Assembly: GCA_019637805.1 (NCBI GenBank)
Contig: JAHBVB010000001.1
Span: 5,262-69,261, forward strand
Length of the DNA stretch: 64,000 bases
Direction: 5' to 3'
Origin: Anaerolineales bacterium
GTDB taxonomy: Bacteria; Chloroflexota; Anaerolineae; Anaerolineales; UBA11579
A program made the position numbers and the translations under genes. Below the pieces are notes generated by a model, which was given only the letters and a program-made list of their open reading frames with translations, did not search any database and had not been told where the DNA came from. This document shows positions 1 to 43,379 of this stretch, in pieces. Position 1 is the stretch's first letter. Every line of letters starts with the position of its first letter.

Positions 1-3000
1 ACAACGCGGTCACCACCCGCGGCCGCGTGCTGGATACGGCCACGCTGAACGCATACAACCCGGAGCAATTCGAGGAAGACGCCAGCGGCGCGAGCGCCTC
101 CATCGGAGTCGGCGCGGTCAGCAAATCGATCTATGCGGTCAACGGCAACACTGTCGTGGTGCCGCCCGTGGAGGCGGCCCCGGGGGATGTGATTACCTAT
201 CGCATCCAATACAGCCTGCCCACCGGCGACGTGGAGAACCTGTTCTTCGAAGATTATTTGCCCCTGCCCGTCTTCCGGGTGACAGACCCGGATGCCAATG
301 GCGTGTTCGGGCCTCCCTGGCAGTTCGTGGTCAATGCATGCGCCACAGCGGATGCTACCGTGCCCCCCGCCGGTTTCGTCAAATATGGCCCGAACGAGAC
401 CTACTGCGCCTACAGCGGCATCCTGCCAACGCTTTCAACCAATGCCGCCAACAACCGCCTGGATATTTTTTATGGCGATTTCGACGGAGTGTTCGAAGCG
501 CCCTACACGATCGACCTGCTCTTCTCAGTCACGCTGACCGACGAGCCGTTCGCCGACCGCCTCTTCCTGACCAACCAGGCGCAGTCCTCGGAGAGCAACA
601 CCAGCGCACAGGCTTCCACGGCCAGCGCCCTGGCGCAGTTCATCCTCACCCAGCCCATGCTGAATATCAGCAAGGGCGTCGTTGGGGTGGACAATCCGGC
701 AGGCGTGATCGCGCCGCTGCCGGTGGGGCCGGTCGTCTTTAGCCTGGCCGCCTGCCCGCGATTCGCCGGCACGATTTCATCCACCAACCTGGCCGCCAAC
801 CCGGTGGACAGCAACCTGAGCATGGTGGACGCCGGCGATGTGGTCACCATGGCCATCATCGTGGAAAACAGCGGGTCCGGTGTCGCCGGAGCCTTCGACG
901 TTTTGCTGCGTGATGAACTGCCCGCCGGCCTCAATCTGGTGCCCGGCAGTCTGTGCGTCACCAACGGCGCCGGTACGCCGCTGGCCTATTCCGGAGCCGA
1001 AGCGGACTTCTTCACGCCCACCGGCATCGAGCTGGTCGACCCGGTGGATGGCGCGCTGGCCGTTTCCCATCCCAACAATGGCCTGAACATCGCCGTGATC
1101 ACCTACCAGGTGATCCTGGACGGCAGTGTGGAAGCCGGCGAAGTGCTGGTGAACACCGCGTCCATATTGGATTATGCCGGCGTGGAGGACGGTGCCTCCC
1201 ACCTAGTGAACCCACTGGAAGACACCGCCGAGATCACCCTGGCGGAACCGGAGGCCACCAAGACTCTGGTGACCACCGAGATCAGCGACGCCTTCAACGA
1301 CCATACCGAGGCGGTGATCGGCGAGATGGTCACCTACGAAGTGACGCTGCGCTTCCCCGAAGGGGTGACGCCCGGGGCTATTCTGGTTGACACGCTGGAT
1401 GCGGGCCTGGCGTTTGTGGACTGCCTGGCAGTCAGCCGCTCCTCAGCCGACCTGACCAGCAACCTCGGCGCGGGCGACTTCTCCGACCGTTGCGCCAGCG
1501 CGGTGATTGGCCCCAATGGAGGCACGATTACTTTCGATCTGGGCGATGTAAGCAACGCCAACACCGACAACGCCCAGGACGAGACGCTGACTATCCAGTA
1601 TCGGGTGATCGTGGTCAACCAGTCAAGCAACCAGGCGGGGACGCAACTGAACAACCAGGCCACGCTGAACTTCCAGGCCGGCAGCGTTTCGGCCTCGGCG
1701 CCCAACGTGCGCGTGATCGAGCCGACGGTGAACACGATCAAATCGGCGCTGCCCACCAGCGGCGACGGTGGCGACACGATCACTTTCTCGATCACGATGA
1801 GCAGCCCCATGGGAGTCAACGCGGCGGTTGCCCACGATGTGACCTGGAGCGACACCATCCCAGCCCACATGACCTATGTGGCAGCTTCCCTTGCTGAGGG
1901 CGCCTGCAGCGTTTCGCCTGCCCTGAACGATACGCTGCCCACCCTGACAGCCACCTGGAGCGCGATCAACCCCGGGCAGAGCTGTACGCTCACCTTCCAG
2001 GCGACGATCAACCACACCGCAGTCCCCGGTCAAACCCTGACCAACACAGCCGAAACGCGCTGGACGAGCCTGCCCGGCGACGAGTCGGCCCCGCGCTCGC
2101 CCTTCAACGCCAACTCGGTGGAGCGCAGCGGGGCGGGCGGTTTGCTTGGTTTAGGCGCGCTGAACGATTACCGCACCCAGGGCCAGGCGAGCGTGACGAT
2201 CAGCGCCACCACGCCGGAAAAATTCCTGCTCATGACCTCCGAAGACCACACCACCACGATTGCGGGCGTGCCCCGCGTGGCCATCGGTGAAATCGTGCGC
2301 TACCGGCTGGTGATCCAGCTGCCCGAGGGGGCCGCCCCCAACTTCCAGATCCGGGACAACCTGCCCGCGGGGCTGGTCTTTGTCAACGACGGCACGGCCA
2401 AAGCCGCGTTCGTCTCCACCGGCGGAATCGTCTCGGCCGGCGTTGGCATTGTGTCCGCAGTGAGCGATGCCAACTGCCAGTTCGCCGGCAATGCGGCCGA
2501 CGGAGTCAATCCGGCCATCCCGGCCGCCTGCCCGGCGCTGGCCAACGAGAACGTGGGCAGCACCAACAGCACCATCGCCGATGTGGACGGCTATCTCTCG
2601 GACACCGACCCGTTCTTCAAGCTGGGCAGCCTGCTGAACAACGACAGCGACGCGGACGATGAGTACATCATCCTCGAGTTCAACGCGTTGGTGATGAACA
2701 TCGCCGGCAATGGCACCGGCACCGACCGGGACAACACCTTCCACGTCTTCATCGATGGCAACCAGGTGGGGCTGGAATCGAACAGCGTGCAGGTACGCAC
2801 TGCCCAGCCCGCGCTCACGCTGGCCAAGGCTTCCGTGCTAGACCCCTCGCAGGATGCGGGCGATGCCCTGGTGTACACGCTGACCATCTCGGCAGCCAGC
2901 GGCGCCGACCAGGCCACTGCCTTTGACCTGCAAGTGGTGGATGTGGTGGACAGCGCCTTGAGTGTGGGCGCGGTCAATGTCATCTCCACCCAGGGCGCTA

Positions 3001-6000
3001 CCTGTAGCGGCGGCACGGCCTTCGCCACCAATGCGCTGACCGTCGGGCAAACCGTCACGGTCACCGCCTCTTGCCTCGACCCCGGCGCCAGCATCACCGT
3101 GACGATCAACACCACCGTGGCCGCCAGCGCCACGGCGGGGCAGATCATCCCCAACAGCGCAGACCTCAGCTATACCAGCCTGCCCGGCGATTTTGGCACC
3201 AGCGGCAACCCTACCGGCTCTTACCTGGGTACACTGCTGGCCTTTGGCTACGAATCGAATCCAAGCCAGCAGCACGGCGAACGCACCGGCGCCGGCGGGG
3301 TGAACGCGTATGCCGATGCGGACAACATCCAGGATGCGCTCTCGACGCCGGCGATCACCAAGCTGCAGCCCGTGCCGGCGGCTTACACCATCGGCGACCT
3401 GGTCACCTACGATATTCTGGTCACCCTGCCCGAGGGCATCACCCCGCAGTTGGTCGTGTTCGATGACCTGCCGGACGGTCTGGTCTACCAAAGCCACACG
3501 GTGATCACCAGCGCGGCGGCCAGCGGTGGCCTGCTGGCGGCGGACTTCGCCGGCACCTTGCTGGCGCCCGCCATAGACCTGACCGGGGGCGACCTGAGCC
3601 TGGCCTTTGGCGACGCCACCACAACCGCGGATAACGTGACCACCAACAACACCTTCATGGTGCGCGTGGAAACGCTGGTGGCCAACGTGATCGGCAACCA
3701 GAACGGCACTGCCCTGGAGAACACCGCCACACTCGACTGGCTGGGCGGCACACCCCTGGCTTCCGGCCCAATTGTGATCACGGTAATCGAACCGGAGCTG
3801 CAGATCGTCAAGGGCGTGGACAACCCCACGCCCGGCCTCGGCCAGACGGTCACATTCAGCCTGACCATCAGCCACCTGCCGGGCAGCACTTCGCCCGCCC
3901 TGGATGTACTCCTGTTCGACGATGTGCCCGCGGAGCTGCTGGTGGACCTGGCCACGCTGGCGTTCAGCGACACCCCGGCGAACTGCGCGGTTGGCGTGGA
4001 CACCAGCAGCAGTGCCGGCAACGTGATAGAGGCCAGTGTGGACGAGCTGCCGCTGGGCTGCTCGCTGGAGATCACCTTTGATGCGCTGGTCCAGTTCCCC
4101 GGAGTGCTCTTGGGCGACACGATCACCAACGACGTTGCGATCAGCTGGACTTCGCAGCCGGGGCCGAACGGAGACGAGAGAGACGGCTCGGGCGGCGTGA
4201 ACGATTACAGCGCCGATGACAGCCTTGTCCTGACTGTGGAGGGCGTGGACCTGGCGATCACCAAGGATGATGGCGGCATCAATGTGGATCCTGGAGACGA
4301 TATTGATTACACGCTGAGCTATGTCAACAATGGCAATGCGGATGCCACGGGCGTAGTGATCACCGAAACCGTGCCCGATTACACCACCTTCAATGCCGCC
4401 CTGAGCACCGTAGGCTGGAGCTGCGCGAACGGCAGCCCGGCCGGGACGGTGTGCACCTTCCCGCTGGGCACGATCGCCAGCGGCGCCTCCGCCACGGTGA
4501 ACTTCGTGGTCACCGTGATCACGCCGCTGCCGGCGGCCATCACCGAGACGCTGAACACGACCCGCATCGACGACGACGGCAGCAAGGGCCTCGATCCCAC
4601 GCCCAGCGACAACGAAGACAGCGACATCACCCCGCTGCAGGCCGTGCCCGACTTGGAGATACTCAAGGACAACGGCGTGTCGATCGTCGCCCCCGGAAGC
4701 ATCTTCACCTACACTCTGACGATCAGCAACATCGGCAACCAGGATGCCACCGGCGTGGCTGTCAGCGATACGCTGCCGCCCCAGGTCACCTTCCTCAGCG
4801 CCATCGACAGCGGCGTTGAAGCCGGCGGCATCGTCACCTGGCCGCTGTTCGACCTGGCCTCCGGCGACACGGTGACCCGTACAGTCACCGTTCAGGTCAA
4901 CGATCCATTTACGCCGTTCGCCACCCAGATCACCAACCAGGCCACGGTAACGGACGACGGCACCAACGGCCCGGACCCCGACCTGAGCAACAACACGGAT
5001 GACGACACTGACCAGTTGGTCAGCCTGGCCAATCTGAACATTACCAAGCAGGTCACCGCGTCGAACCAGGCGTTTACCGCGCACCCGGAAGTGGCCATCG
5101 GCGAGATGGTCAGCTACGAAATCATCCTCAGCATCCCGCCCGGGGATTTGCCCGCCATGATGGTGGCAGATACCCTGACCGCCGGTCTGGCTTTTGTGGA
5201 GTGCGTGGAAGTGATCGCTTCGAGCGGCGACCTGACCACGACCCTTGCAGGGGGGTTCAGCTCGATCTGCAGTTCGGCCGTATTCGAGGAGGAGCCGACC
5301 GGCAGCGTGGAGCCGGTGGACCAGGGCCGCCGCATGGTGCTGGACTTTGGCGATGTGGCCAATACCGGCGCCGTCAACCACACGATCACCATCCGCTACA
5401 CGGCCGTGGTGCTGAACTCGCTGGACAACGTGAGCCAAACGATACTGGCCAACAGCGCGCTATGGGAGTGGCAGAGCGGCCTGCTCAGCGTGCTGAGTGA
5501 GGACCTGATCGTCGTCGAACCGCAACTGGTCCTGGCGATGACCGCCGACCGGGATGTGGTGCTGCCGGGCCAGGCGGTGACCTTCCGGCTGACCCTGCAG
5601 CACACCTCGGGCAGCGAGACGGACGCCTTCGACGTGGTGCTCAGCAATCAGTTGCCGGCCAGCCTGGTCTTGATCCCCGGCACGCTGCGACATGTCTCCG
5701 GCCAAACGCCGACATTGCTGACCGAACTGGGCGCCAGTGTCGAAATCACCTGGGACCAGTTCCTGAACAATGGCCAGGACTCGGTGATCGAATTCCAGGC
5801 TTTGGTGGGCGCCGTCTCCGCGGGAGATGTGATCACCAACATCGCACTGGCCGAATGGAGCAGTCTGCCGGGCGATTTCAGCCTGCCGCAATCGTTGCAC
5901 AACACCCTCTCGAGCGAACGCGCCTATCTGCCCGGCGACCCGCTCAACCCATACCTCACCGAAGCCAATGTAGAGCTGACCGTGCCGGGGGGGTTGCCGG

Positions 6001-6506
6001 CCACCGGCTTTGCCCCGGGCCAGGTGAGCGCCATCCCTGAGCCTGCCGGCCCGATGTACCAGGACCTGGGCGACCTGCGCATAGAAATCCCGAACATCAA
6101 CATCTCGGAGAGTATCGTGGGCGTACCGCTGCAAAGCGAGCAGTGGGATGTGACCTGGTTGAACAACGACATCGGCTATCTGGACGGCACGGCTTACCCC
6201 ACCCGCCCGGGCAATTCGATCCTCACCGCCCACGTCTACCTGGCTGATGGCCGCCCCGGCCCCTTCGTCAACCTGCACACGTTGAAGTGGGGCAACGAAG
6301 TGGTGGTTTACTCGGCCGGCTACAGATATGTCTACGAAGTGCGCGAAGTTTCGCTGGTCGATCCGGCAGACCTCTCCGTGCTGGAGGGTGACGGCTATAC
6401 CTGGCTGACCCTGATCACCTGCCGCGGCTACGACGAAACCAACGACAGCTACCAGTGGCGCGTGGCGGTGAGAGCGGTACTGGTCCGCGTTGAGCCGGGC
6501 AGCTAA
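1..6506 (+). CDS. Giant surface adhesin-like repeat protein (5'-partial) ending in an LPATG motif fused to a sortase domain
   Basis: One uninterrupted ORF. Codons 3-26 upstream of the track start (27) are also open, so the N-terminus lies outside the window. T/N/D/V/G-rich extracellular-type composition. At least four modules open with [AV][VA]IGE[MI]V.Y or YTIGDLVTY (nt ~1311, ~2277, ~3384, ~5091). Module-end motif [WY]-[TS]-S-[LQ]-P-G ... ER-x-G-x-GG-[VL]-N-[DA]-Y at nt 2061, 3171, 4146, 5856 (last copy degenerate). Two DUF11-type repeats and a C-terminal sortase signature. Confidence 0.85.
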   Translation, partial: NAVTTRGRVLDTATLNAYNPEQFEEDASGASASIGVGAVSKSIYAVNGNTVVVPPVEAAPGDVITYRIQYSLPTGDVENLFFEDYLPLPVFRVTDPDANGVFGPPWQFVVNACATADATVPPAGFVKYGPNETYCAYSGILPTLSTNAANNRLDIFYGDFDGVFEAPYTIDLLFSVTLTDEPFADRLFLTNQAQSSESNTSAQASTASALAQFILTQPMLNISKGVVGVDNPAGVIAPLPVGPVVFSLAACPRFAGTISSTNLAANPVDSNLSMVDAGDVVTMAIIVENSGSGVAGAFDVLLRDELPAGLNLVPGSLCVTNGAGTPLAYSGAEADFFTPTGIELVDPVDGALAVSHPNNGLNIAVITYQVILDGSVEAGEVLVNTASILDYAGVEDGASHLVNPLEDTAEITLAEPEATKTLVTTEISDAFNDHTEAVIGEMVTYEVTLRFPEGVTPGAILVDTLDAGLAFVDCLAVSRSSADLTSNLGAGDFSDRCASAVIGPNGGTITFDLGDVSNANTDNAQDETLTIQYRVIVVNQSSNQAGTQLNNQATLNFQAGSVSASAPNVRVIEPTVNTIKSALPTSGDGGDTITFSITMSSPMGVNAAVAHDVTWSDTIPAHMTYVAASLAEGACSVSPALNDTLPTLTATWSAINPGQSCTLTFQATINHTAVPGQTLTNTAETRWTSLPGDESAPRSPFNANSVERSGAGGLLGLGALNDYRTQGQASVTISATTPEKFLLMTSEDHTTTIAGVPRVAIGEIVRYRLVIQLPEGAAPNFQIRDNLPAGLVFVNDGTAKAAFVSTGGIVSAGVGIVSAVSDANCQFAGNAADGVNPAIPAACPALANENVGSTNSTIADVDGYLSDTDPFFKLGSLLNNDSDADDEYIILEFNALVMNIAGNGTGTDRDNTFHVFIDGNQVGLESNSVQVRTAQPALTLAKASVLDPSQDAGDALVYTLTISAASGADQATAFDLQVVDVVDSALSVGAVNVISTQGATCSGGTAFATNALTVGQTVTVTASCLDPGASITVTINTTVAASATAGQIIPNSADLSYTSLPGDFGTSGNPTGSYLGTLLAFGYESNPSQQHGERTGAGGVNAYADADNIQDALSTPAITKLQPVPAAYTIGDLVTYDILVTLPEGITPQLVVFDDLPDGLVYQSHTVITSAAASGGLLAADFAGTLLAPAIDLTGGDLSLAFGDATTTADNVTTNNTFMVRVETLVANVIGNQNGTALENTATLDWLGGTPLASGPIVITVIEPELQIVKGVDNPTPGLGQTVTFSLTISHLPGSTSPALDVLLFDDVPAELLVDLATLAFSDTPANCAVGVDTSSSAGNVIEASVDELPLGCSLEITFDALVQFPGVLLGDTITNDVAISWTSQPGPNGDERDGSGGVNDYSADDSLVLTVEGVDLAITKDDGGINVDPGDDIDYTLSYVNNGNADATGVVITETVPDYTTFNAALSTVGWSCANGSPAGTVCTFPLGTIASGASATVNFVVTVITPLPAAITETLNTTRIDDDGSKGLDPTPSDNEDSDITPLQAVPDLEILKDNGVSIVAPGSIFTYTLTISNIGNQDATGVAVSDTLPPQVTFLSAIDSGVEAGGIVTWPLFDLASGDTVTRTVTVQVNDPFTPFATQITNQATVTDDGTNGPDPDLSNNTDDDTDQLVSLANLNITKQVTASNQAFTAHPEVAIGEMVSYEIILSIPPGDLPAMMVADTLTAGLAFVECVEVIASSGDLTTTLAGGFSSICSSAVFEEEPTGSVEPVDQGRRMVLDFGDVANTGAVNHTITIRYTAVVLNSLDNVSQTILANSALWEWQSGLLSVLSEDLIVVEPQLVLAMTADRDVVLPGQAVTFRLTLQHTSGSETDAFDVVLSNQLPASLVLIPGTLRHVSGQTPTLLTELGASVEITWDQFLNNGQDSVIEFQALVGAVSAGDVITNIALAEWSSLPGDFSLPQSLHNTLSSERAYLPGDPLNPYLTEANVELTVPGGLPATGFAPGQVSAIPEPAGPMYQDLGDLRIEIPNINISESIVGVPLQSEQWDVTWLNNDIGYLDGTAYPTRPGNSILTAHVYLADGRPGPFVNLHTLKWGNEVVVYSAGYRYVYEVREVSLVDPADLSVLEGDGYTWLTLITCRGYDETNDSYQWRVAVRAVLVRVEPGS
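4248..4905 (+). other. Two tandem DUF11-type (conserved repeat domain) Ig-like repeats inside the adhesin
   Basis: DLAITKDDGG..PGDDIDYTLSYVNNGNADATGVVITETVP...ASATVNFVVTV, then DLEILKDNG..PGSIFTYTLTISNIGNQDATGVAVSDTLP...TVTRTVTVQVN. This is the classic D-L-x-[IL]-x-K ... Y-x-[IL]-x-[VI]-x-N-x-G...A layout of DUF11 repeats. Confidence 0.7.
5994..6008 (+). other. LPATG sortase-recognition (LPXTG) motif in frame within the adhesin
   Basis: Codons TTG CCG GCC ACC GGC = L-P-A-T-G in the adhesin frame ((5994-27) is divisible by 3). The motif is followed by a Pro/Gly linker rather than a hydrophobic helix plus basic tail. Confidence 0.6.
6075..6503 (+). other. Sortase (cysteine transpeptidase) catalytic domain at the C-terminus of the adhesin ORF
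   Basis: LRIEIPNINISESIVGVP ... PGNSILTAHV (His codon 6231-6233) ... WLTLITC (TLxTC, Cys codon 6420-6422) ... WRVAVRAVLV (conserved Arg). Order and spacing fit the sortase His-Cys-Arg triad. Confidence 0.8.
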
Positions 6507-6527
6507 CCCGCGTTCAAATTAGCCCTC

Positions 6528-6558
6528 AAGGCCGCCTGGAATTCCAGGCGGCCTTTTT
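6528..6558 (+). terminator. Rho-independent terminator after the adhesin gene
   Basis: Perfect stem AAGGCCGCCTGG (6528-6539) / CCAGGCGGCCTT (6544-6555), loop AATT, run of five T at 6554-6558. Lies 22 nt after the TAA stop. Confidence 0.8.
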
Positions 6559-6579
6559 GTACAGGCTGGCGTTTCAGGC

Positions 6580-6585
6580 TATCAT
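6580..6585 (+). promoter_or_regulatory. -10-like hexamer TATCAT, 6 nt upstream of the ATG (leaderless candidate)
   Basis: TATCAT at 6580-6585, spacer CAGCAG, ATG at 6592. No Shine-Dalgarno in between. Confidence 0.35.
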
Positions 6586-6591
6586 CAGCAG

Positions 6592-7950
6592 ATGAGCCAC
6601 AAATCGGCCGAAGTCGTCATCTGCGGCGCGGGCATCCTCGGGGTCAGCGCCGCCTATTTCCTGAGCAGGCTGGGCGTTCGGGATATCGTGCTCATTGACC
6701 AACAGGCTCCGCTCACGCTGACATCCGACAAATCCACCGAGTGCTACCGCAACTGGTGGCCCGGCCCCGGCGATGCCATGGTGGCGCTGATGAACCGCAG
6801 CATCAGCCTGATGGAGGAAATGGCCGCGCAGAACGGCAACCTCTTCCACCTCAACCGGCGCGGCTATTTGTATGTGAGCACCGCCGCGGACGGCGCCGAG
6901 CGCCTGCGCGCCGCGGCCGCCGAGGCCAGCGGCCTGGGCGCCGGCGAACTGCGCGAGCACGGACCGGGCGCGCCGGGCTATCGGGCGCACCAGCCCGAAG
7001 GCGTGGGCGGCCCGCTGGGCGCCGACCTGCTGGACGGCGCCGCGGCACGGGCCGCCTTCCCCTACCTGAGCGCGGATACCCGCGCTGCGCTGCACGTGCG
7101 CCGCGCCGGCTGGCTCAGCGCGCAAACCTTCGGCATGTGGATGCTGGAGCAGGCCAAGGCCGCCGGCGCCGAAGTGGTCAGCGGGCGGCTGGCGGCGGTG
7201 GAGGCCAGCGCCGGGGCGGTCTCTGGCGTGGCGCTGGAGGACAGGAGCCAGATACGCACACCGGTGTTCATCAACGCCGCCGGGCCGTACCTCGGCCAGG
7301 TAAGCGCTCTGCTCGGGGTCGACATCCCGATCAGCAACGAAGTGCACCTCAAGGCGGCGTTCAACGACCACCTCGGCGCGCTGCCCCGCGAGGCGCCGTT
7401 GGTGATCTGCGCCGACGAACAGGAACTGGACTGGGCGCCGGAGGAGCGCGAGCTGCTGGCCAGCGACCCGCAGACCGCCGGCTTGCTTGAGCGGCTGCCC
7501 TCGGGGGCGCATACACGCCCGGAGGGCGACCGCGCCGCCCAGAGCATTCTGGTACTGTGGGATACGCACAACGAAGCCGTGGAGCCGACCTTCCCCATCG
7601 TCGAAGACCCGTTTTACGCTGAACTGGCCGTGCGCGGCCTGGCGCGTGTGCTGCCGGGCATGGCGGCCTACGCAAACCGCCTGCCGCGGCCGCAGGTGGA
7701 CGGCGGCTACTACACCAAGACGCAAGAGAACCGCCCGCTGGCCGGGCCGCTGGGCGTGTCAGGCGCCTACCTCATCGGCGCTGCCTCGGGCTACGGCGTG
7801 ATGGCCGCCGCCGGGCTGGCCGAGCTGCTCGCCGCGCACCTCACCGGCGGGGAGCTGCCCGGTTACGCACCGTTGTTCGAGTTCAGCCGCTACGCCGACC
7901 CGGATTACCAGGCGCAGCTGGCGGGCTGGGGCGAGAGCTGGCAGCTGTGA
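6592..7950 (+). CDS. FAD-dependent oxidoreductase (DAO-like family)
   Basis: N-terminal dinucleotide-binding fold VVICGAGILGVSAAYFL..VLIDQ. 452 aa, typical for the D-amino-acid/sarcosine oxidase-like family. C-terminal GAASGYGVM motif. Confidence 0.7.
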   Translation: MSHKSAEVVICGAGILGVSAAYFLSRLGVRDIVLIDQQAPLTLTSDKSTECYRNWWPGPGDAMVALMNRSISLMEEMAAQNGNLFHLNRRGYLYVSTAADGAERLRAAAAEASGLGAGELREHGPGAPGYRAHQPEGVGGPLGADLLDGAAARAAFPYLSADTRAALHVRRAGWLSAQTFGMWMLEQAKAAGAEVVSGRLAAVEASAGAVSGVALEDRSQIRTPVFINAAGPYLGQVSALLGVDIPISNEVHLKAAFNDHLGALPREAPLVICADEQELDWAPEERELLASDPQTAGLLERLPSGAHTRPEGDRAAQSILVLWDTHNEAVEPTFPIVEDPFYAELAVRGLARVLPGMAAYANRLPRPQVDGGYYTKTQENRPLAGPLGVSGAYLIGAASGYGVMAAAGLAELLAAHLTGGELPGYAPLFEFSRYADPDYQAQLAGWGESWQL

Positions 7951-8021
7951 GGCCGGGTAAGAGTTCACCGTCGTAAGAGTCTTATAAGAAAGGCCGGCCG
8001 GGTAATGCGGTCGGGTCTAAT

Positions 8022-8030
8022 TGGTATAAT
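8022..8030 (+). promoter_or_regulatory. Extended -10 promoter element TGGTATAAT upstream of ftsH
   Basis: TG-G-TATAAT (TATAAT = 8025-8030), about 47 nt upstream of the GTG start. GGAGG at 8065-8069 lies 7 nt before GTG 8077. The -35 is weak. Confidence 0.45.
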
Positions 8031-8076
8031 TCGACGAATGTCAATTTGCGATACCCGCAATCTTGGAGGCGCTTAA

Positions 8077-9948
8077 GTGAATACCCCCCGCAGCCGAGTA
8101 TCGGTACTCTACCTGCTCTTTTTCGCTGCGCTGGTCTTTTTTGTTTTTGCAAGTTACTACCAGCGAATCAACACCCAGGAACCGCTCAGCATTAACCAGG
8201 TGGCCGCCGACATCCAGGCCGGCCGCGTGGCACGCGTCATCACCGACAACGACCGGCTAACCGTGGTCTACCGCAGCGGCGAAGAGCGCGCCGCGCAGAA
8301 AGAGCCCGTGGCCACCACTGTCGAACAGCTGATGGCCCTGGGCGTGACCCAGGAGCAGCTCACCGCCAACCGCATCACCATCGAGGTCAAACCGCCAAGC
8401 TCCTGGCTGGGCATAGCGACGGTGATGACCTACCTGCTGCCGGTCATCGTGCTGGCTGCGTTGCTTTGGTTCGTCTTCCGCCAGGCGCAGGGCAGCAACA
8501 ACGCGGCGATGTCCTTCGGCAAATCGCGGGCGCGCATGTTCACCGGCGAAAGCCCTCAGGTGACCTTCAAGGATGTCGCCGGGGTGGAAGAGGCCAAAGT
8601 GGACCTGCAGGAGATCGTCGAGTTCCTCAAGGAACCCGACAAGTTCGTGCAGCTGGGCGCCCGCATCCCCAAGGGCGTGCTGCTGGTTGGCCGCCCGGGG
8701 ACCGGCAAGACCCTGCTGGCCAAGGCCGTCTCCGGCGAAGCCGGCGTGCCTTTCTTCTCCATCTCCGGTTCCGAATTCGTCGAGATGTTCGTGGGCGTAG
8801 GCGCCAGCCGTGTGCGCGACCTCTTCGACCAGGCCAAGCGCCACTCGCCCTGCATTATCTTCATCGACGAAATCGACGCCGTGGGCCGCCAGCGCGGCGC
8901 CGGCCTGGGCGGCAGCCACGACGAGCGCGAACAGACGCTCAACCAGATGCTGGTGGAGATGGACGGCTTCGATACCGACACCAACATCATCATGATCGCC
9001 GCCACCAACCGCCCCGATATTTTGGACCCAGCGCTGCTGCGCCCCGGCCGCTTCGACCGCCGGGTGATGCTGGACGCGCCGGATGTGAAAGACCGCGAAG
9101 CCATCCTCAAGGTGCATGTGCGCGGCAAACCGCTGTCCAAGAGCGTCAAGCTGGATGTGATCGCCCGCGCCACCCCGGGCCTGGTGGGCGCCGACTTGGA
9201 GAACCTGGTCAACGAGGCGGCCATTCTGACCGCCCGGCGCAACAAGAAAGCCATCGGCATGGACGAGCTTCAGGAAGCCATTGAACGCAACATGATCGGC
9301 CCGGAGCGCAAGACGCGCATCATCACCCCGGACGAGAAGACCATCGTGGCCTACCACGAGGCCGGCCACGCCGTGGTGGCCCACGCCCTGCCCAACTGCG
9401 ACCCGGTGCACAAAGTGACCATCGTGCCGCGCGGCCGCGCCGGCGGCTTCGTGCTGGCCCTGCCGGATGAGGACTACACCATGATCAGCCGGGCCAAGCT
9501 ACTGGACCGCATGGCCTTCACGCTGGGCGGCCGCGCCGCCGAAGAGATCATCTTCGACGACATCACCTCCGGCGCCCAGAGCGACCTTGAGCACGTGACC
9601 CGTGTGGCGCGCGAAATGGTCACCCGCCTGGGCATGAGCAAAGAGTTGGGGCCGCGCGTGTACGGACAGAAAGAGGAACTGGTCTTCCTCGGCCGCGAGA
9701 TTTCGGAACAGCGCGACTACTCCGAAGCGGTCGCCCAGAAGATCGACGAAGAAGTCCACAAACTGGTCGTGGAAGCCCTGACCCGGGCACGCAAGACCTT
9801 GACCAAATACAAGTCTCACCTGCACAAAGTGGCCAAGAAGCTGATGGAAGTGGAAACCCTCAGCCGGGAAGAGTTCGAAAAGCTCTTCCCCACGCCAGTA
9901 CCCAAGCGCAGCGGCACGCCGCGTTTGGTCAGCGCCAACTCCCGCTAG
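8077..9948 (+). CDS. ftsH: ATP-dependent zinc metalloprotease FtsH
   Basis: Two N-terminal TM segments, AAA+ Walker [14 protein letters not shown], Walker [12 protein letters not shown] region, zinc motif HEAGHA. GTG start with GGAGG upstream. Confidence 0.95.
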
Positions 9949-9952
9949 CTTC

Positions 9953-9985
9953 AAAGAGCCAGGCAATGCCTGGCTCTTTCTTTTT
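9953..9985 (+). terminator. Rho-independent terminator after ftsH
   Basis: Stem AAAGAGCCAGG (9953-9963) / CCTGGCTCTTT (9969-9979), loop CAATG, then C + TTTTT (9981-9985). Confidence 0.8.
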
Positions 9986-9990
9986 AACTG

Positions 9991-9996
9991 TAAAAT
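9991..9996 (+). promoter_or_regulatory. -10-like hexamer TAAAAT, 7 nt upstream of the ATG of the FAAL gene (leaderless candidate)
   Basis: TAAAAT at 9991-9996, spacer ACCGCCC, ATG at 10004. No SD. Sits directly after the ftsH terminator. Confidence 0.4.
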
Positions 9997-10003
9997 ACCG
10001 CCC

Positions 10004-11662
<1,659 letters not shown>

Positions 11663-11668
11663 AGAGAG

Positions 11669-11917
11669 CTAGCTCGCCCGAGCTTCGATCAAGCCGGCAA
11701 GTTGCTCCAGCGTATCGAAGGTTTCGGCGTTGAGCTCGGTATCATCCAGGCGCACGCCCCAGGTCTGCTCCACAAACAGCGACAAGTCCACCAGCGAGAA
11801 CGAGTCGATCAATCCACCGGAAATTAGCGCTTCCGTGGCGGAGAGCGTTTTGTCCGGACGCTTCAAGATCTCGCCGGTGATGTATGTGTTCAGCTTGCTG
11901 ATGATTTCTGCTTTCAT
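11669..11917 (-). CDS. Acyl/D-alanyl-type carrier protein (phosphopantetheine attachment)
   Basis: 82 aa, acidic. GGLIDSFSLVDL matches the [DG]-S-[FL] phosphopantetheinyl-serine context of ACP/DltC-like carriers. The start overlaps the upstream stop as ATGA (11917-11914). Confidence 0.7.
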   Translation of the reverse strand: MKAEIISKLNTYITGEILKRPDKTLSATEALISGGLIDSFSLVDLSLFVEQTWGVRLDDTELNAETFDTLEQLAGLIEARAS

Positions 11918-13044
11918 TTTTTCTCCAAGTCAAAGAGCTCGGCCAGTACAGTTGCGATCTGCTGGGCCAATTGCTGTGTGCCCGCTGGCGTCAGGTGAAT
12001 GGGCGTATTGGTGAATTGGTCATTGTCCACCGCTTGCCACAGGTCGGCGTAATGCCAACTCTGCCGCTCCGCCTCAGCTTGCAGCCACTGGCGGTATTGG
12101 TCGTAGGCCCAGCGCGGATAAAAGGAATTGTAACGAATATCACTGTTGGCGCCGCGGCTGACAAACATAGGTTCGTTGATCAACAGCACGGGCGTCTCGC
12201 CGGCGCGCTGGATGCCGGCGGCGAGCACATCCAAGGCCAACGCAGTTTCGGGCAGCTCCGGCGGCAGAAATTCGCCATAGCGCTCATCCGCCTCCAGGTC
12301 GATGGCATGGCGTTCCACCTGCTCAGGAATGTGCACATCCACACCGGTGGCCGCCCACAAGACGCCGTAGAACTGCAAGCGCAATAAGTCTGCCAGGTTG
12401 CGCCGCTGGCCCAGCAAGCTGGCGCCCCAGGCATCCTGGCGGACGAAAGCAGGGTCCGCCGGGTCCAACGGCAGGCCATGATTGCGGATCAGTGCTTCGG
12501 CCCGCTGCGGGTTGTGCTGCAGCAGCGGCGAGCTGTCCTGCTTGCTCAGCGGAAAAGCTTCCAACGTCAGCGGCCAAATCAGCAGGTCGGGCTGGTAACG
12601 TATGGCGTAATCCAGAATGAGTAGGTCCTTGCTTAGTGAAATAGTCGGATGGCCAAGGTTGTAAAAGACCGCCCGGCGACCATCGGCCGTCCGCAACCCG
12701 GCGGCGTTGAGTGCCGACGTCAGTGTGTCTTTATTCTCCAGCAAATAGCCCCATACTGAAGAATCGCCGATCAGCAGTACGCGGTACTCGTCGGCGGCCT
12801 TGGGCGTGCCGTGCAGCTGGTGCGAGGCAAACATGGCCTCCAGGCTGTACAGGCTCAGGTTGTAGGCGCGCCCCGGATCATCGCCATAGGGCAGCCGCTC
12901 ACGCCCGGGCAGCAGTCCGTTGTACAAGCTGAGCCCGCCCAAAGCCGGCATGGGGTCAAAGGCTGCGAAGAGCAGGTTGACCAGCACAAACAGCAGCGCG
13001 GCCTTGAGAACAATCCGCACAGGTGAAACCACCGGTGATCTCAT
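11914..13044 (-). CDS. Membrane-anchored SGNH/GDSL-family protein, DltD-like position in the cluster
   Basis: Start taken at ATG 13044 (ATGA overlap with the MBOAT stop; the track ORF extends to 13155). N-terminal TM IVLKAALLFVLVNLLFAAF, block I LLIGDSSVWGY, block V DNDQFTNTPIHLTPAG (D..H). Confidence 0.7.
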   Translation of the reverse strand: MRSPVVSPVRIVLKAALLFVLVNLLFAAFDPMPALGGLSLYNGLLPGRERLPYGDDPGRAYNLSLYSLEAMFASHQLHGTPKAADEYRVLLIGDSSVWGYLLENKDTLTSALNAAGLRTADGRRAVFYNLGHPTISLSKDLLILDYAIRYQPDLLIWPLTLEAFPLSKQDSSPLLQHNPQRAEALIRNHGLPLDPADPAFVRQDAWGASLLGQRRNLADLLRLQFYGVLWAATGVDVHIPEQVERHAIDLEADERYGEFLPPELPETALALDVLAAGIQRAGETPVLLINEPMFVSRGANSDIRYNSFYPRWAYDQYRQWLQAEAERQSWHYADLWQAVDNDQFTNTPIHLTPAGTQQLAQQIATVLAELFDLEKK

Positions 13045-14450
13045 CGGCCCACCCCCACCCCGGCCAACACGCCAAAGACATGCGCCGCATCTGCCGGCTG
13101 CGGCAGGGCAAACCACACCCAACCCAGCGCAACGAAGACCAGGGTGGCCAGCCAACCCAGGCCGCTGGCCAAGCGCGGCTCAAACGGCAGTGGCCGCGCT
13201 TTGGCGAATTGCGCCCACTGGTTGTGGGCGAACAAGCCCAGACCGTGCCACAGGCCCCAGGCCAGGAAGTTCCAGGTGATGCCGTGCCACAGGCCGATCA
13301 GGCCCATGGTGCTCAGCTGGCCCAGCAGCACCACCAGCCAGACCGGCGCGCCGCGGCCGCGCAGCCAGCGCGTGAAGGGATTGAAGAAATAGGCCCGGAA
13401 CCACTGCGCCAGGGTAATGTGCCAACTGTTCCAGAATTGGGTCAGGTTGGGTTTGCGATAAGGCTGGGTGAAGTTCTCCGGCAAGGTCACGCCAAACAGC
13501 TGGCCCAGTCCGATAGCGATGCTGGTGTAACCCGCGAAGTCGAAGAAGATACGCAGGGCATAAGCCAACAACAGCAACCACATCCACAGCGGCTGACTGA
13601 CCTGCCAGGCGTTGACTGGATTGAGTGCAAAGAAGGCCAGCCCGTCAGCCAGGACGAACTTCATCACCAGGCCGCTGAGCAAGCGCTGGCCGGCCGCCAG
13701 CAGCCCGGCACTGTCCAAGACAAAACCAGGCTCCAGCTGGGGCACAAAGCGCTCAACGCGCTCAATCGGGCCAGCGGTGAGTGCCGGGAAAAAGACGATG
13801 TAGGTGATGAAGTCGCGCAGCCCCACTTCCCCCAGGCGGCCGGCCAGCCGGTCACGCAGCACATGGATCAGCCGGAAGGCGATGTAGGAGAAACCCAGCC
13901 AGCCCAGGTCCAGCGTGCTGGCCAGCGCCGGGTCCTGGCCGCCCAGGCCGCGCAGCCAGGCGCTGGCCGCCTGCACCAGCGGCGGCGACTTGAGCACCAC
14001 CAGCAGGCCGATCAAGAGCAGCACGCCGCCGTGCAGCCAGGCGGCCTGGCCGCGGCCCAGGCGGTACGCCAGCACAGCAGCAACGGCCAGGAGGGCCAGG
14101 CCGCCGCCCGCCAGTTCCAACCCCGGCGGGCGGGCCGGGCTGAGAGCGCTGAGCGGCTCGACAACGCGGGAGGCGCTGACCAGCAGGGCCAGGGCCGCCA
14201 AGCCGGCAGCCGCCCAGGCGTCTTGGCGGTTCCAGCGCCGCGGCAGGGTCAGCGCCCAGACCAGCACTGCCAGGCCCAGGCTGGCCAGGGGCAGCAGGTA
14301 GGGCAGATTGCGCACGAAGGAGGCAGGCTGCAGCCAGAAAGCCGCCAGGACGCTGGCGGCAAACAGCAGCCAGGCGCGGTCCAGCCAGCGGTACAGACGG
14401 CTCGCCAGCAGGCCTAAGCCGGCAAAGATCAGGATCTGGGTCAGGGTCAT
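13041..14450 (-). CDS. MBOAT-family membrane-bound O-acyltransferase (DltB/AlgI-like)
   Basis: Polytopic, 469 aa. Conserved FWNSWHITLAQWFRAYFF (catalytic His region) and GLWHGITWNFLAWGLWHG. Confidence 0.85.
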   Translation of the reverse strand: MTLTQILIFAGLGLLASRLYRWLDRAWLLFAASVLAAFWLQPASFVRNLPYLLPLASLGLAVLVWALTLPRRWNRQDAWAAAGLAALALLVSASRVVEPLSALSPARPPGLELAGGGLALLAVAAVLAYRLGRGQAAWLHGGVLLLIGLLVVLKSPPLVQAASAWLRGLGGQDPALASTLDLGWLGFSYIAFRLIHVLRDRLAGRLGEVGLRDFITYIVFFPALTAGPIERVERFVPQLEPGFVLDSAGLLAAGQRLLSGLVMKFVLADGLAFFALNPVNAWQVSQPLWMWLLLLAYALRIFFDFAGYTSIAIGLGQLFGVTLPENFTQPYRKPNLTQFWNSWHITLAQWFRAYFFNPFTRWLRGRGAPVWLVVLLGQLSTMGLIGLWHGITWNFLAWGLWHGLGLFAHNQWAQFAKARPLPFEPRLASGLGWLATLVFVALGWVWFALPQPADAAHVFGVLAGVGVGR

Positions 14451-14451
14451 G

Positions 14452-14571
14452 CTAAAAACCCTGGTAGATCCATAACGGGCTGGCGTCGGCCGTCATGACC
14501 AGCAACGCCATCACGGCCAAACACAATAGGACGGCGTAGAGGTTCTCGCGAGTTAATAGAGACTTAAGCAT
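14452..14571 (-). CDS. DltX-like single-pass micropeptide (39 aa) ending WIYQGF
   Basis: Internal ATG (14571) of the 80-aa track ORF gives MLKSLLTRENLYAVLLCLAVMALLVMTADASPLWIYQGF: one TM helix plus a C-terminal aromatic-I-Y-x-x-F. The TAG stop lies 1 nt before the MBOAT ATG. Confidence 0.55.
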   Translation of the reverse strand: MLKSLLTRENLYAVLLCLAVMALLVMTADASPLWIYQGF

Positions 14572-14581
14572 GGAAAGCGAA

Positions 14582-14587
14582 ATTATA
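14582..14587 (-). promoter_or_regulatory. -10-like TATAAT (minus strand), 10 nt upstream of the micropeptide ATG
   Basis: Plus-strand ATTATA at 14582-14587 is TATAAT on the minus strand. No SD before ATG 14571. Divergent from the mmuM-like gene. Confidence 0.35.
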
Positions 14588-14605
14588 AAGCAGTCAGGCA
14601 AACGG

Positions 14606-14611
14606 TAAAAT
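14606..14611 (+). promoter_or_regulatory. -10-like hexamer TAAAAT, 5 nt upstream of the ATG (leaderless candidate)
   Basis: TAAAAT at 14606-14611, spacer GCGGC, ATG at 14617. No SD. Confidence 0.35.
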
Positions 14612-14616
14612 GCGGC

Positions 14617-15504
14617 ATGAGAACCTTTCGAGAACGACTTATCGATCCACGGCCCATCCTGCTGGATGGGGCCATGGGCACTGAACTGGAACACCGCGGC
14701 ATCAACACGGATACACCGATCTGGTCAGCGATGGCCCTGATCGAGAAACCTGATCTGGTGGAACAAGTCCACCGCGATTATTTGGACGCCGGGGCTGAGG
14801 TGCTGATCACCAACACCTTCCGCACCCACCGCCGCAACCTGGCCAGCATGGGCATGGGCGAGCGGGCCGCCGAACTGACCGCCCTGGCGGTGGCGATCGC
14901 CCAGCAAGCCATCCGCGCCAGCGGGCGCGTGGCCTGGGTGGCCGGCTCCCTGGCCCCGCTGGAGGACAGCTACGTGGCCAACGCCCTGCCGCGCGAAACC
15001 TACCTGGAAGAACACGGCGAAATGGCCGCGCACCTGGCCGCGACCGGCGCCGACCTGCTGCTGGTGGAAACCATCAGTACGATCCGCGAGGCCTCGGCCG
15101 CCGCCGAAGCGGCACGCGCTACCGGGCTGCCTTACGGGGTCAGCTTCATTTGCAAGACGGACGGGCGCATGTTCTCTGGCGAGTCACTGGCCGAGGCAGT
15201 CGCCGCGCTGCAATCCTTCACGCCCGACTTTCTGGGCATCAACTGCACCGCGGCCCCTGAACTGCACCTGGCGCTGGCCGAGCTGCGCAACGCCACCAAT
15301 CTGCCCATCGCGGTGTACGCCAACCCCAGCCACACCGAAGACTACCAGCACTGGGACGAGACCGCCGCGGTTGACCCGCAGGTCTACGCGGGTTATGGGG
15401 AAAGATGGCTGCAAGGCGGCGCCCAACTGCTGGGCGGCTGCTGCGGCACCACGCCGGAACACATCGCCGCATTGCACGACTTGATCGGGGTGGAGGATGC
15501 GTAG
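14617..15504 (+). CDS. Homocysteine S-methyltransferase
   Basis: N-terminal ILLDGAMGTELEHRGI and C-terminal zinc-ligand motif LLGGCCGTTPEHI, both typical of the S-methyltransferase (MmuM/BHMT-like) domain. Confidence 0.85.
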   Translation: MRTFRERLIDPRPILLDGAMGTELEHRGINTDTPIWSAMALIEKPDLVEQVHRDYLDAGAEVLITNTFRTHRRNLASMGMGERAAELTALAVAIAQQAIRASGRVAWVAGSLAPLEDSYVANALPRETYLEEHGEMAAHLAATGADLLLVETISTIREASAAAEAARATGLPYGVSFICKTDGRMFSGESLAEAVAALQSFTPDFLGINCTAAPELHLALAELRNATNLPIAVYANPSHTEDYQHWDETAAVDPQVYAGYGERWLQGGAQLLGGCCGTTPEHIAALHDLIGVEDA

Positions 15505-16210
15505 TAGCCTGCCGGCCAACGATCATTTCATCCAGATCTACAAGAATCAGGCGGCCGCCTATCACCAGCTGATCGCGGCCGAAGACGCCGACGGCAACCT
15601 GCTGCCGGCCCTGCAGGCGGTTGCCCCGCTGAGCGGCGCACGCATTCTGGACCTGGGCAGCGGCAGTGGGCGCATCCCTCTGCTCTTGCAGGAGATCGAT
15701 TGCGAGATCGTCGCCAGCGACATCCACCATGCCATGCTGGTGGAACAAGCCGCCCAGGCCGCCGCGGCTGGGCGCCGCTGGCCGCTGTTGGTGGCGGACG
15801 GCCGCCGCCTGCCGCTGGCTGGCGGCTGGGCCGACGCCAGCATCGCCGGCTGGGCTTACGGCCACTTCACGGGCTGGAGCGCCGACTGGCGGATCGAGGC
15901 GCAGCAGGCCGTGGCCGAAATGCGGCGCGCCACCCGCCCCGGCGGCGTCATGGTCATTTTCGAGACCTTGGGCACCGGCGCCCTGCAGCCTGCCCCGCCC
16001 AACCCGGCCTTGGCCGATTACTACGCCTGGCTGGAGGATGAACTGGGCTTCCAACGGCAGGCCATCGCCACCGATTACGATTTCGGCTCAGTGGAACGGG
16101 CGGCAGAGATCTGTGGCTTCTTCTTTGGTGAGGAACTGGCGGCCAGGGTGCGCCAGAATGCTTGGAGCCGGGTACCGGAATGGACCGGCATGTGGAGCCG
16201 GTGGGCCTAA
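15497..16210 (+). CDS. Class I SAM-dependent methyltransferase
   Basis: Motif I ILDLGSGSGRIPLLL and post-I acidic residue (ASDI). 8-nt overlap with the upstream gene. Confidence 0.7.
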   Translation: MRSSLPANDHFIQIYKNQAAAYHQLIAAEDADGNLLPALQAVAPLSGARILDLGSGSGRIPLLLQEIDCEIVASDIHHAMLVEQAAQAAAAGRRWPLLVADGRRLPLAGGWADASIAGWAYGHFTGWSADWRIEAQQAVAEMRRATRPGGVMVIFETLGTGALQPAPPNPALADYYAWLEDELGFQRQAIATDYDFGSVERAAEICGFFFGEELAARVRQNAWSRVPEWTGMWSRWA

Positions 16211-16214
16211 ACCC

Positions 16215-16255
16215 GTCATTCTGAGCCAGCGGCGCAGCCGCGCCGCCAAGAATCC
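16215..16255 (+). repeat. Intergenic hairpin repeat GTCATTCTGAGC-[GC hairpin]-CAAGAATCC (copy 1)
   Basis: GTCATTCTGAGC (16215-16226); internal stem GCGGCGC (16229-16235) / GCGCCGC (16240-16246); AAGAATC end (16248-16254). The same termini recur inverted at 28227-28285. Confidence 0.6.
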
Positions 16256-16309
16256 ATCACCACCCATAAATCCTATATTCGTTCATGCAGGCAGCTGGGA
16301 TTCGGGATG

Positions 16310-16336
16310 CTACGTGTCGCTCTGAGCGACACGTAG
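16310..16336. repeat. Perfect 13-bp inverted repeat CTACGTGTCGCTC / GAGCGACACGTAG between convergent genes
   Basis: 16310-16322 pairs perfectly with 16324-16336. Lies 18 nt downstream of the mutS stop. No T-tract, so the terminator role is uncertain. Confidence 0.4.
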
Positions 16337-16353
16337 GTGCACAGCAGCGGCCG

Positions 16354-18939: not shown

Positions 18940-18945
18940 GCGGAA

Positions 18946-18951
18946 ATTCTA
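18946..18951 (-). promoter_or_regulatory. -10-like TAGAAT (minus strand), 6 nt upstream of the mutS ATG (leaderless candidate)
   Basis: Plus-strand ATTCTA at 18946-18951 is TAGAAT on the minus strand. Spacer of 6 nt to ATG 18939. No SD. Confidence 0.35.
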
Positions 18952-18969
18952 ACAGCTAGGGTTACGGGT

Positions 18970-19842: not shown

Positions 19843-19920
19843 GCCTGTTCTCTGGCCCTCCCATTCCAGGTCAAGTCTTCACTTGGAATTATATAGGCGA
19901 TTGAGGGATAAATCGTCGCA

Positions 19921-19949
19921 TTGTTCACAAACCCCATTCGTCTTATAAT
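19921..19949 (+). promoter_or_regulatory. Sigma70-type promoter TTGTTC-17-TATAAT for the ABC ATPase gene
   Basis: -35 TTGTTC (19921-19926), 17-nt spacer, -10 TATAAT (19944-19949). GGAGG (19974-19978) lies 9 nt upstream of ATG 19988. Confidence 0.5.
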
Positions 19950-19987
19950 TGCCCTACCATACATTCGAGAACTGGAGGTTCAGAACA

Positions 19988-43283: not shown

Positions 43284-43379
43284 GTTAGCATCGTTAGGCA
43301 AGTACATCCAGAATATAAGGGGGTAGACATTCACAAGACCTTTTACACCAATGCAATTCTTCTGCTAACGCTGGTCCTG

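Follow-up and report, generated by a model that had tools for sequence, protein, structure and literature searches.

A conserved family of Chloroflexota adhesins ending in a sortase domain behind an LPXTG motif, a candidate for self-sorting in cis

Introduction

How is a surface protein sorted when its sortase and its LPXTG motif lie on the same polypeptide? This question is raised by a giant adhesin gene at the left end of a 64,000-nucleotide stretch of DNA from an Anaerolineales bacterium (GenBank assembly GCA_019637805.1, contig JAHBVB010000001.1, positions 5,262 to 69,261 of the forward strand; hereafter the window, with position 1 as its first nucleotide). In sortase biology, enzyme and substrate are separate proteins, and both partners are tethered to the membrane. 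The classical sorting signal consists of LPXTG, a hydrophobic helix and a K/R tail, and is found within the last ~35-50 residues of the substrate. In the gene studied here, the LPXTG motif is followed by a sortase catalytic domain, with which the protein ends. An initial annotation of the window had pointed out this single gene. Judged by sequence comparison, the adhesin-sortase fusion is a large and conserved Chloroflexota family, which that annotation had not foreseen.

Results

The adhesin gene and its C-terminal module

The third forward frame of the window is open from nucleotide (nt) 3 to a TAA stop codon at 6504-6506 (2167 codons), and the gene crosses the left edge of the window. It has the following features.

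3..5993, + strand: stalk (passenger) of the giant secreted adhesin; open frame, truncated on the left by the window edge
5994..6008, + strand: LPATG recognition motif, residues 1998-2002; predicted scissile bond Thr2001-Gly2002
6006..6074, + strand: conserved connector G-FAPG-QVSAIPEPAGPMYQDLGD, 23 residues, of fixed length; predicted new N-terminus of the released enzyme
6075..6485, + strand: sortase catalytic domain, an eight-stranded beta barrel; beta1 is LRIEIP and starts at residue 2025
6144..6161, + strand: WDVTWL, family-specific motif in the loop region that follows beta2; both Trp invariant
6231..6233, + strand: catalytic His2077 (GNSILTAHV), codon CAC; invariant in alignments A1, A2 and A3, aligns with the class C His
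6420..6422, + strand: catalytic Cys2140 (TLITC), codon TGC; invariant, aligns with the TLxTC Cys of solved sortases
6459..6461, + strand: catalytic-type Arg2153 (WRVAV), 13 residues downstream of the Cys; conservation at least 90% in A1 and A2 and complete in A3
6504..6506, + strand: stop codon TAA; the enzyme is the last element, with no transmembrane segment and no charged tail after it
6530..6558, + strand: intrinsic-terminator-like hairpin; stem 6530-6553 (10-bp G+C stem, 4-nt loop), U5 at 6554-6558

The stalk matched DUF11 (now CLIPPER) in Pfam with 226 bits. In NCBIfam it matched TIGR04226 (isopeptide-forming domain-containing fimbrial protein) with 191.7 bits in five stretches, and TIGR01451 (DUF11-type repeat) with 187 bits. 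By these tandem domains, which match curated models, the stalk is of the isopeptide-stabilised fibrillar adhesin/pilin type. Residue 1 of the window protein aligns with residues ~586-595 of full-length homologues, which begin with signal peptides, and ~590 N-terminal residues including a signal peptide are therefore expected to the left of the window. Look-ups of the neighbouring genes in public contigs did not recover this missing N-terminus. A public contig that carries these genes too (GCA_026129235.1, JAHCIK010000003.1) stops near window position 9588, inside ftsH (8077-9948), so that this assembly breaks ~3 kb past the end of the giant gene. The neighbouring gene at 14617-15504 is also present on a second contig, of >1 Mb.

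The LPATG motif lies ~170-173 residues from the C-terminus, and the last 173 residues make up the module of motif, connector and enzyme. Pfam Sortase (PF04203) matched amino acids (aa) 2027-2161 over the entire model (1-125/125) with 76.8 bits, against a cut-off of 26.6, and TIGR01076 reached 42.2 bits on the C-terminal piece (cut-off 39.35). The hidden Markov model (HMM) matches, the catalytic triad and the fold agree that the domain is a member of the sortase superfamily (PF04203, MEROPS C60). The protein terminates 14 residues past Arg2153. A search of its last 260 aa found no transmembrane or hydrophobic segment, the highest 19-residue Kyte-Doolittle mean being 1.39. Neither a stop nor a frameshift was found between LPATG and the enzyme. 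The stretch from motif to enzyme holds one ATG (Met2018), without a visible Shine-Dalgarno sequence, and this Met is not conserved among homologues. By chance, 0.11 LPXTG motifs are expected anywhere in the protein and 0.002 in the 40 residues preceding the enzyme. Hence, an LPXTG in such a protein is unremarkable, and an LPXTG beside the sortase domain is remarkable. In genomic homologues the motif is found at this position in 84/84.

In the WDVTWL region, W54, W58 and L59 are invariant in alignment A1, and WDxTWL is not conserved in the class C sortases (PDB sequences) that HMMER aligned to the domain. The WDVTWL loop may serve as the surface on which the GFAPG segment docks.

The terminator-like hairpin begins 24 nt past the stop codon and folds with a dG of -26.8 kcal/mol (z -4.71). 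A simple consensus terminator scan did not report it.

These results bear out every sequence statement of the initial annotation, with one correction to its view of the linker. It had placed an adhesin of >2150 aa, LPATG at codons 5994-6008 and a sortase in one reading frame, and this agrees with the 2167 open codons and with the position of the motif. The codons that it had proposed for His (6231-6233), Cys (6420-6422) and the Arg of WRVAV are the ones that align with the sortase triad. Furthermore, the absence of a stop, frameshift, ribosome-binding site or transmembrane segment between motif and enzyme was confirmed, the lone ATG having no Shine-Dalgarno sequence, and its strong terminator was recovered by folding as a hairpin with U5. 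The HMM search that it had asked for recognised sortase, DUF11/CLIPPER and isopeptide (TIGR04226) domains with the scores given above. It had also seen a Pro/Gly-rich linker of ~22 aa. Such a segment is present, but it is not a loose linker, since both its sequence and its length are conserved.

Distribution and architecture of the family

With the last 201 residues as query, 182 proteins were matched, mostly fragments on short metagenome contigs. The named matches, from Anaerolineales or Chloroflexi, were annotated as 'sortase' or 'class F sortase'. Among the best 120 matches, [LIM]PxTGF preceded the enzyme in 112, nearly always as PxTGFAP(G/N), and the length from motif to C-terminus was near-constant (mostly 170-175 residues). 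A scan of one genome per species yielded 428 genomic relatives, nearly all in Anaerolineales/Chloroflexota. The best 76 loci, from different species, came almost all from metagenome-assembled genomes (MAGs) of Anaerolineales/Chloroflexota, including long-read contigs of up to 1.9 Mb. When these loci were searched by tblastn, the enzyme formed the last ~170-180 aa in 85/85 matches, in open frames of 300 to >3,500 aa. Finally, a profile searched exhaustively against 1.84 billion cluster representatives (50% identity clusters) retrieved 1,460 proteins at E<=1e-30. The module was present in 150/150 of the best clusters among these ~1,460, whose representatives were 239-5,482 residues long, and it stood at the extreme C-terminus in all except P0165 and P0173.

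Full-length members of the family start with typical cleavable signal peptides. The domains of their cargos include DUF7933, SdrD_B, SpaA, SpaA_2, DUF7507, CLIPPER, CARDB, beta-helix, FctA and SHIRT. Because the cargo domains differ between members, the module behaves like a portable cassette at the C-terminus. More than one copy is present in several genomes, and two giant sortase-tailed genes stand head to tail in three loci (L014, with genes at 2141-10537 and 10710-20123, L037 and L005). Some MAGs carry at least three copies on separate contigs, for example CALCSH01 (L036, L065, L070). Members also occur in MAGs of Anaerolinea, Bellilinea and Ornatilinea (L010, L054, L059). Neighbour clustering revealed no conserved partner gene near the loci. 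The neighbours that clustered reflected only synteny within lineages, with an ABC transporter in 13-15 loci, or were fragments of the same gene.

An unusual member is P0173 (L080:4064-7210), in which two tandem sortase domains follow a single LPRTGFAPG. The second domain (TFITC) is preceded by a degenerate 'LPKMGY'. Its cargo consists of SHIRT, FctA and Cna_B, the contig has 50% G+C, and three adjacent open reading frames (ORFs) look like one split giant gene.

The initial annotation had proposed that relatives be surveyed for fused versus split genes. In the relatives, LPXTG, connector and sortase were fused, and the enzyme was not encoded as a separate, membrane-anchored protein. Short sortase ORFs on long contigs (P0045, P0117) were considered as genuine split versions and rejected, as they are the last pieces of giant genes fragmented by frameshifts. 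Giant genes broken into chains of ORFs on the same strand were found in L004, L052, L078:1752-8534 and L079:1-8501, in long-read, nanopore-style MAGs. They probably reflect indel errors, or possibly pseudogenes. The final ORF of such a broken gene is then annotated as a small stand-alone sortase. The stand-alone copies that we examined were all gene fragments of this kind. Thus, three of the four circumstances that the initial annotation had named as fatal to its reading were looked for and not encountered: an assembly error at the junction, homologues with a separate transmembrane-anchored enzyme, or a triad out of register.

Conservation pattern of motif and connector

A motif logo was compiled from 84 genomic copies. 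Its consensus is L/I-P-X-T-G-F-A-P-(G/N/D), with the following counts out of 84.

P4: L 70, I 6
P3: P 83
X: A 20, S 13, E 10, K 9, G 6, D 5, and others
P1: T 84
P1': G 84
+2: F 84
+3: A 83
+4: P 84
+5: G 62, N 11, D 7

The same pattern, with T-G fixed and X free, recurs in 113 metagenomic fragments and in 145 cluster representatives. An invariant scissile T-G, a free X and an invariant triad together form the pattern of a working sortase site beside a working enzyme. Beyond GFAPG, the connector continues as x-(V/I)-T-x-(L/I)-P-x-Q-P...Y...LEIP. It is itself a conserved element and is probably docked on the domain.

The spacing between motif and enzyme is constrained as well. From the Thr to WDxTWL it measures 47-48 residues in 256/302 sequences (85%), with a range of 45-50 and one outlier, and from the Thr to the Cys it is 139-141 in 296/323 sequences. 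This spacing is constant despite passengers that range ~fifty-fold in length, from ~100 to 5,300 aa. The coupling between motif and enzyme is strictly one to one. In 1.29 Mb (the 76 loci plus the window), PxTGF[AT]P occurs 87 times, and an in-frame sortase Cys motif follows in 84. The remaining three are accounted for by the end of a locus, a pattern miss and a frameshift.

We also looked for the classical sorting signal. No ORF in the same 1.29 Mb carries LPXTG with a transmembrane helix and K/R tail, and no LPXTG-anchor model of NCBIfam was among the families listed at E<=0.01. The window protein itself was rejected as a bearer of the classical cell-wall sorting signal. It has LPXTG and lacks the hydrophobic helix and K/R tail.

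Predicted structure and relationship to sortase classes

The residues encoded by nt 5922-6503 were modelled with AlphaFold2 (AF2) from a 121-sequence alignment. The model had a mean predicted local distance difference test (pLDDT) of 90 and a predicted TM-score (pTM) of 0.86. The pLDDT was 49-61 in the 20 residues upstream of the motif, 76 in the middle of the connector and >90 in the barrel. The blocks with LPATGF and APGQVSAIPE, which have no regular secondary structure, reached 88 and 90, respectively. In a second run, on a 50%-identical homologue (P0024), the STGFAPGVTT block had a pLDDT of 91 and the residues upstream of the motif 74. The motif segment is thus predicted to sit at a defined position on the sortase domain.

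Foldseek against the PDB returned 117 matches at E<=0.001, and the 50 listed were all sortases. Class C sortases ranked first (E about 3e-11, TM about 0.6), as they did in the sequence profile search against the PDB (E 1e-14 to 1e-11). The top relatives were A. oris SrtC-1, C. diphtheriae SrtA, group B streptococcus SrtC1 and the E. faecalis Ebp sortase. Classes D, E and A came next in the structure and profile rankings.

None of the sortase class models of NCBIfam came near its cut-off. The class C model (NF033745) gave 40.3 bits where 160 are required, the class F model (NF033748) 43.2 where 166 are required, and classes D, E and GN were all far below. In class C sortases, a lid N-terminal to beta1 occupies the active site. 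The DP[FWY] motif of this lid is absent from the connector of the window protein and from the family consensus, and LPXTGFAPG stands in its place. Furthermore, the window protein contains no [YF]PK pilin-motif lysine, and none of 70 long members contains YPK[NDT]. Assignment to class C was therefore rejected on four grounds: the HMM cut-off, the DP(F/W/Y) lid, the transmembrane anchor and the pilin-motif substrates.

A low-confidence HMMER alignment (24rr_A) places the class C 'LDPF' next to the GFAPG segment. As an equivalence with the class C lid this is weak, because it comes from one low-confidence alignment and the other alignments start at beta1. We take it as a hint only that a segment N-terminal to beta1 can reach the active site.

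Lysine content and other features of the window

The adhesin (window 3-6503) has 16 Lys in 2167 residues (0.74%), almost all in the first strand of the stalk domains, and the median of 70 family cargos is 0.98%. Low Lys contents are also found in two other proteins of the window that are probably exported, a PD40-repeat protein (40495-42195; 0/566) and an M23 peptidase (42192-43283; 0.6%). The cytoplasmic proteins in the window mostly have 2.3-5.5% Lys. Exported proteins may be depleted in Lys as a group. Depletion in the stalk was therefore rejected as a sign of a reactive thioester, being nonspecific.

The PD40-repeat protein and the M23 peptidase belong to an envelope-related cluster (40495-44855) that also includes a PMT_2-family glycosyltransferase. 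In the region 11914-14450 (- strand), an MBOAT-family membrane O-acyltransferase (13041-14450) lies beside a 413-aa ORF without a Pfam hit, whose counterpart in the matching public contig bears a faint GDSL-lipase mark. The two look like an envelope-modification pair of the AlgI/DltB type. The rest of the window is housekeeping (ftsH, mutS, alaS, recA, eno, pyrG, mfd, ahcY). No tRNA genes, and no Rfam families at gathering score, were found in the 64 kb.

Discussion

Proposed mechanism and its alternatives

We favour, with a confidence slightly above even, a mechanism in which the protein would process itself in cis at the Thr-Gly bond, with one enzyme per substrate, after which the adhesin would be transferred to an amine acceptor. 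This reading draws on the conservation pattern and on the AF2 models. The adhesin would be exported by Sec, as suggested by the signal peptides, which are seen only on full-length homologues, and its stalk would fold outside the cell. The C-terminal sortase domain would then fold with its own LPATG-GFAPG bound in cis. Attack of Cys2140 on Thr2001-Gly2002 would generate a thioacyl intermediate, so that the enzyme would act as catalyst and leaving group at once. An amine acceptor would resolve the thioester and leave the adhesin covalently attached via Thr2001, and a fragment of ~166 residues, the sortase domain starting at GFAPG, would be released. As each adhesin comes with its own enzyme, the enzyme would be used stoichiometrically and would need no membrane anchor. 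Sortases bind LPXTG weakly, which classical systems offset by tethering both partners to the membrane. In the fused protein, a covalent tether would supply the high local substrate concentration that is otherwise given by the membrane. The acceptor would most likely be a free amino group of the cell's own peptidoglycan. We prefer peptidoglycan because this is the usual adhesin topology and no further partner is needed, and of all steps this one has the least support.

Several points weigh against this mechanism. The description of the motif segment as 'docked' derives from pLDDT and not from coordinates, and a docked segment is not equal to a T-G bond placed beside the Cys. The two AF2 runs are not independent either, as their alignments are largely the same. 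The F-A-P that invariably follows the scissile bond is without parallel in classical substrates, and could signal a structural or regulatory role instead of, or besides, cleavage. Covariation between motif and domain (mutual information with average product correction) is weak. The best pair, the motif L/I and a position in the beta6/beta7 loop, ranks 53 of 15,051, and covariation was not used as evidence, given this weakness and the confounding by shared ancestry. As the protein is not retained in the membrane, lipid II suggests itself less readily as acceptor than in classical systems. Moreover, the census of separate sortases and classical substrates was confined to the 1.29 Mb of loci plus window.

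The same observations can be read in other ways. The sortase domain might act in trans, cleaving the LPXTG of neighbouring molecules and joining them to each other or to the wall, so that fibres or a sheath-like network would result. Profile and fold searches both lead to pilin-polymerising class C sortases as the closest solved relatives, the stalks are built of pilin/adhesin-type domains (SpaA, FctA, GramPos_pilinBB, TIGR04226), and tandem paralogues exist in the three loci mentioned above. We nevertheless regard trans action as unlikely, as it would require neither a fixed spacing nor a private enzyme for each substrate. The YPK(N) pilin motif is absent from the window protein and the 70 long members, the few Lys of the stalk are nearly all domain-initial, and no class model of NCBIfam reaches its cut-off. 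The fixed spacing, the strict 1:1 coupling and the confident AF2 placement together favour cis over trans. To this extent the self-processing adhesin of the initial annotation, which had left cis and trans side by side, is favoured in its cis form. Its cleavage, its single turnover and its acceptor are what we infer.

Cleavage in cis need not lead to ligation. Sortases slowly hydrolyse their substrates when no nucleophile is present, and with water as acceptor the domain would simply remove itself and thereby release or mature the adhesin. That no acceptor can be identified here, and that no membrane tether brings the enzyme near lipid II, would suit such autoproteolysis. It is nonetheless improbable: a secreted protein whose signal peptide is cleaved off has no need of a second release step, a transpeptidase fold that keeps its triad fully conserved would be a costly means for one cut, and the adhesin would be left without visible attachment. 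We assign an equally small probability to the idea that the motif is never cut, and that LPXTG-GFAPG serves as an autoinhibitory lid of a stalk-held enzyme acting on other proteins. The position of the segment N-terminal to beta1, the site of the class C lid, would fit this idea, as would the 24rr_A alignment (of low confidence), and contacts made in binding may explain why F-A-P behind the scissile bond is invariant. However, a segment that is never cut would be expected to lose T-G, whereas both are retained in 84/84 copies while X drifts. No candidate trans substrates occur near any of the 76 loci, a stalk whose signal peptide has been cleaved would hold the enzyme to nothing, and the other class C alignments, which begin at beta1, leave the lid equivalence weak.

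A separate housekeeping sortase could also process the LPXTG, the fused domain merely replacing the transmembrane helix and charged tail as a retention or folding domain. The limited reach of the sortase census gives some room for such an enzyme. Yet the invariant His/Cys/Arg and the fixed spacing would be unexplained, a soluble domain cannot retain a precursor in the membrane, and all sortase homologues in the 1.29 Mb surrounding family members are fused, so that we consider this very improbable. Finally, a sequencing or assembly error might have joined an adhesin gene to a separate sortase gene. The probability of such an artefact is negligible, as the in-frame junction recurs across species and assemblers (76 loci) and in ~1,460 clusters, and errors in long-read MAGs break giant genes rather than join them. 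Conservation across species rules it out.

Self-processing in cis also has a more far-reaching form, which we hold to be doubtful. The module might be a natural single-chain, single-turnover ligation 'warhead', which, away from the membrane, would turn the Thr-Gly bond into a thioester held by the enzyme and pass it to any suitable amine. Acceptors would then include the cell's own wall, a neighbouring subunit or filament (giving a sheath or fibres) and even a foreign surface.

Implications

Across an order of environmentally abundant filamentous bacteria, in more than 1,000 clusters, a sortase and its substrate are apparently fused without a membrane anchor. This suggests that the module is a self-contained covalent attachment route for surface proteins. 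If the module processes itself, surface proteins could be fixed covalently without a membrane-bound sortase, which would help to explain how Anaerolineae build their surface. Self-processing would also make the module a compact (~175-residue), genetically encoded and self-contained ligation tag for protein engineering. If the 'warhead' reading were true, sortase action would be independent of the membrane, a new principle of covalent adhesion.

The family lies in an annotation blind spot, its members currently being called 'sortase' or 'class F sortase'. Large surveys of adhesins and isopeptide domains sought LPXTG only in the last 50 residues (PMC9210967, PMC12617251), and miss the family because their motif search was confined to this region.

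Comparison with known systems

In the full-text literature searched, which excludes papers available by subscription only, we found no description of a natural LPXTG-sortase fusion. The parts of the module are known, and their arrangement, which we did not find described, changes how the system must work.

The module resembles classical sortase/LPXTG sorting (S. aureus SrtA, protein A) in its superfamily, its H-C-R triad and an LPXTG with a free X, and in the long isopeptide-stabilised Ig-like stalk, which in full-length homologues stands behind an N-terminal signal peptide. In contrast to classical sorting, enzyme and substrate form one polypeptide in which the enzyme takes the place of the hydrophobic helix and K/R tail, both partners lack a membrane anchor, and F-A-P after the Gly is invariant. 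With class C sortases (A. oris SrtC-1, 2xwg; S. pneumoniae SrtC-1, 2w1j; C. diphtheriae SrtA, 5k9a) the module shares an ordered segment before beta1. Unlike them, it has no DP(F/W/Y) lid, no transmembrane anchor and no separate pilin genes, and it has the WDxTWL insertion.

Hedgehog and intein HINT domains and the thioester-domain adhesins of Gram-positive bacteria offer a parallel to the proposed chemistry, in which a protein's own backbone bond would become a (thio)ester and pass to an external nucleophile in a single turnover. This likeness is an analogy only, as folds and chemistry are unrelated and no homology was detected. The nearest parallel in one chain is man-made. Engineered self-cleaving sortase-LPXTG fusions are used for tag removal and protein ligation. 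The sortase usually comes first in them (sortase-LPXTG-cargo), and they need added Ca2+ or glycine. The module would resemble them in that intramolecular cleavage within a single chain releases the cargo. Unlike these constructs, it is ordered cargo-LPXTG-sortase, is natural and is conserved across a bacterial order.

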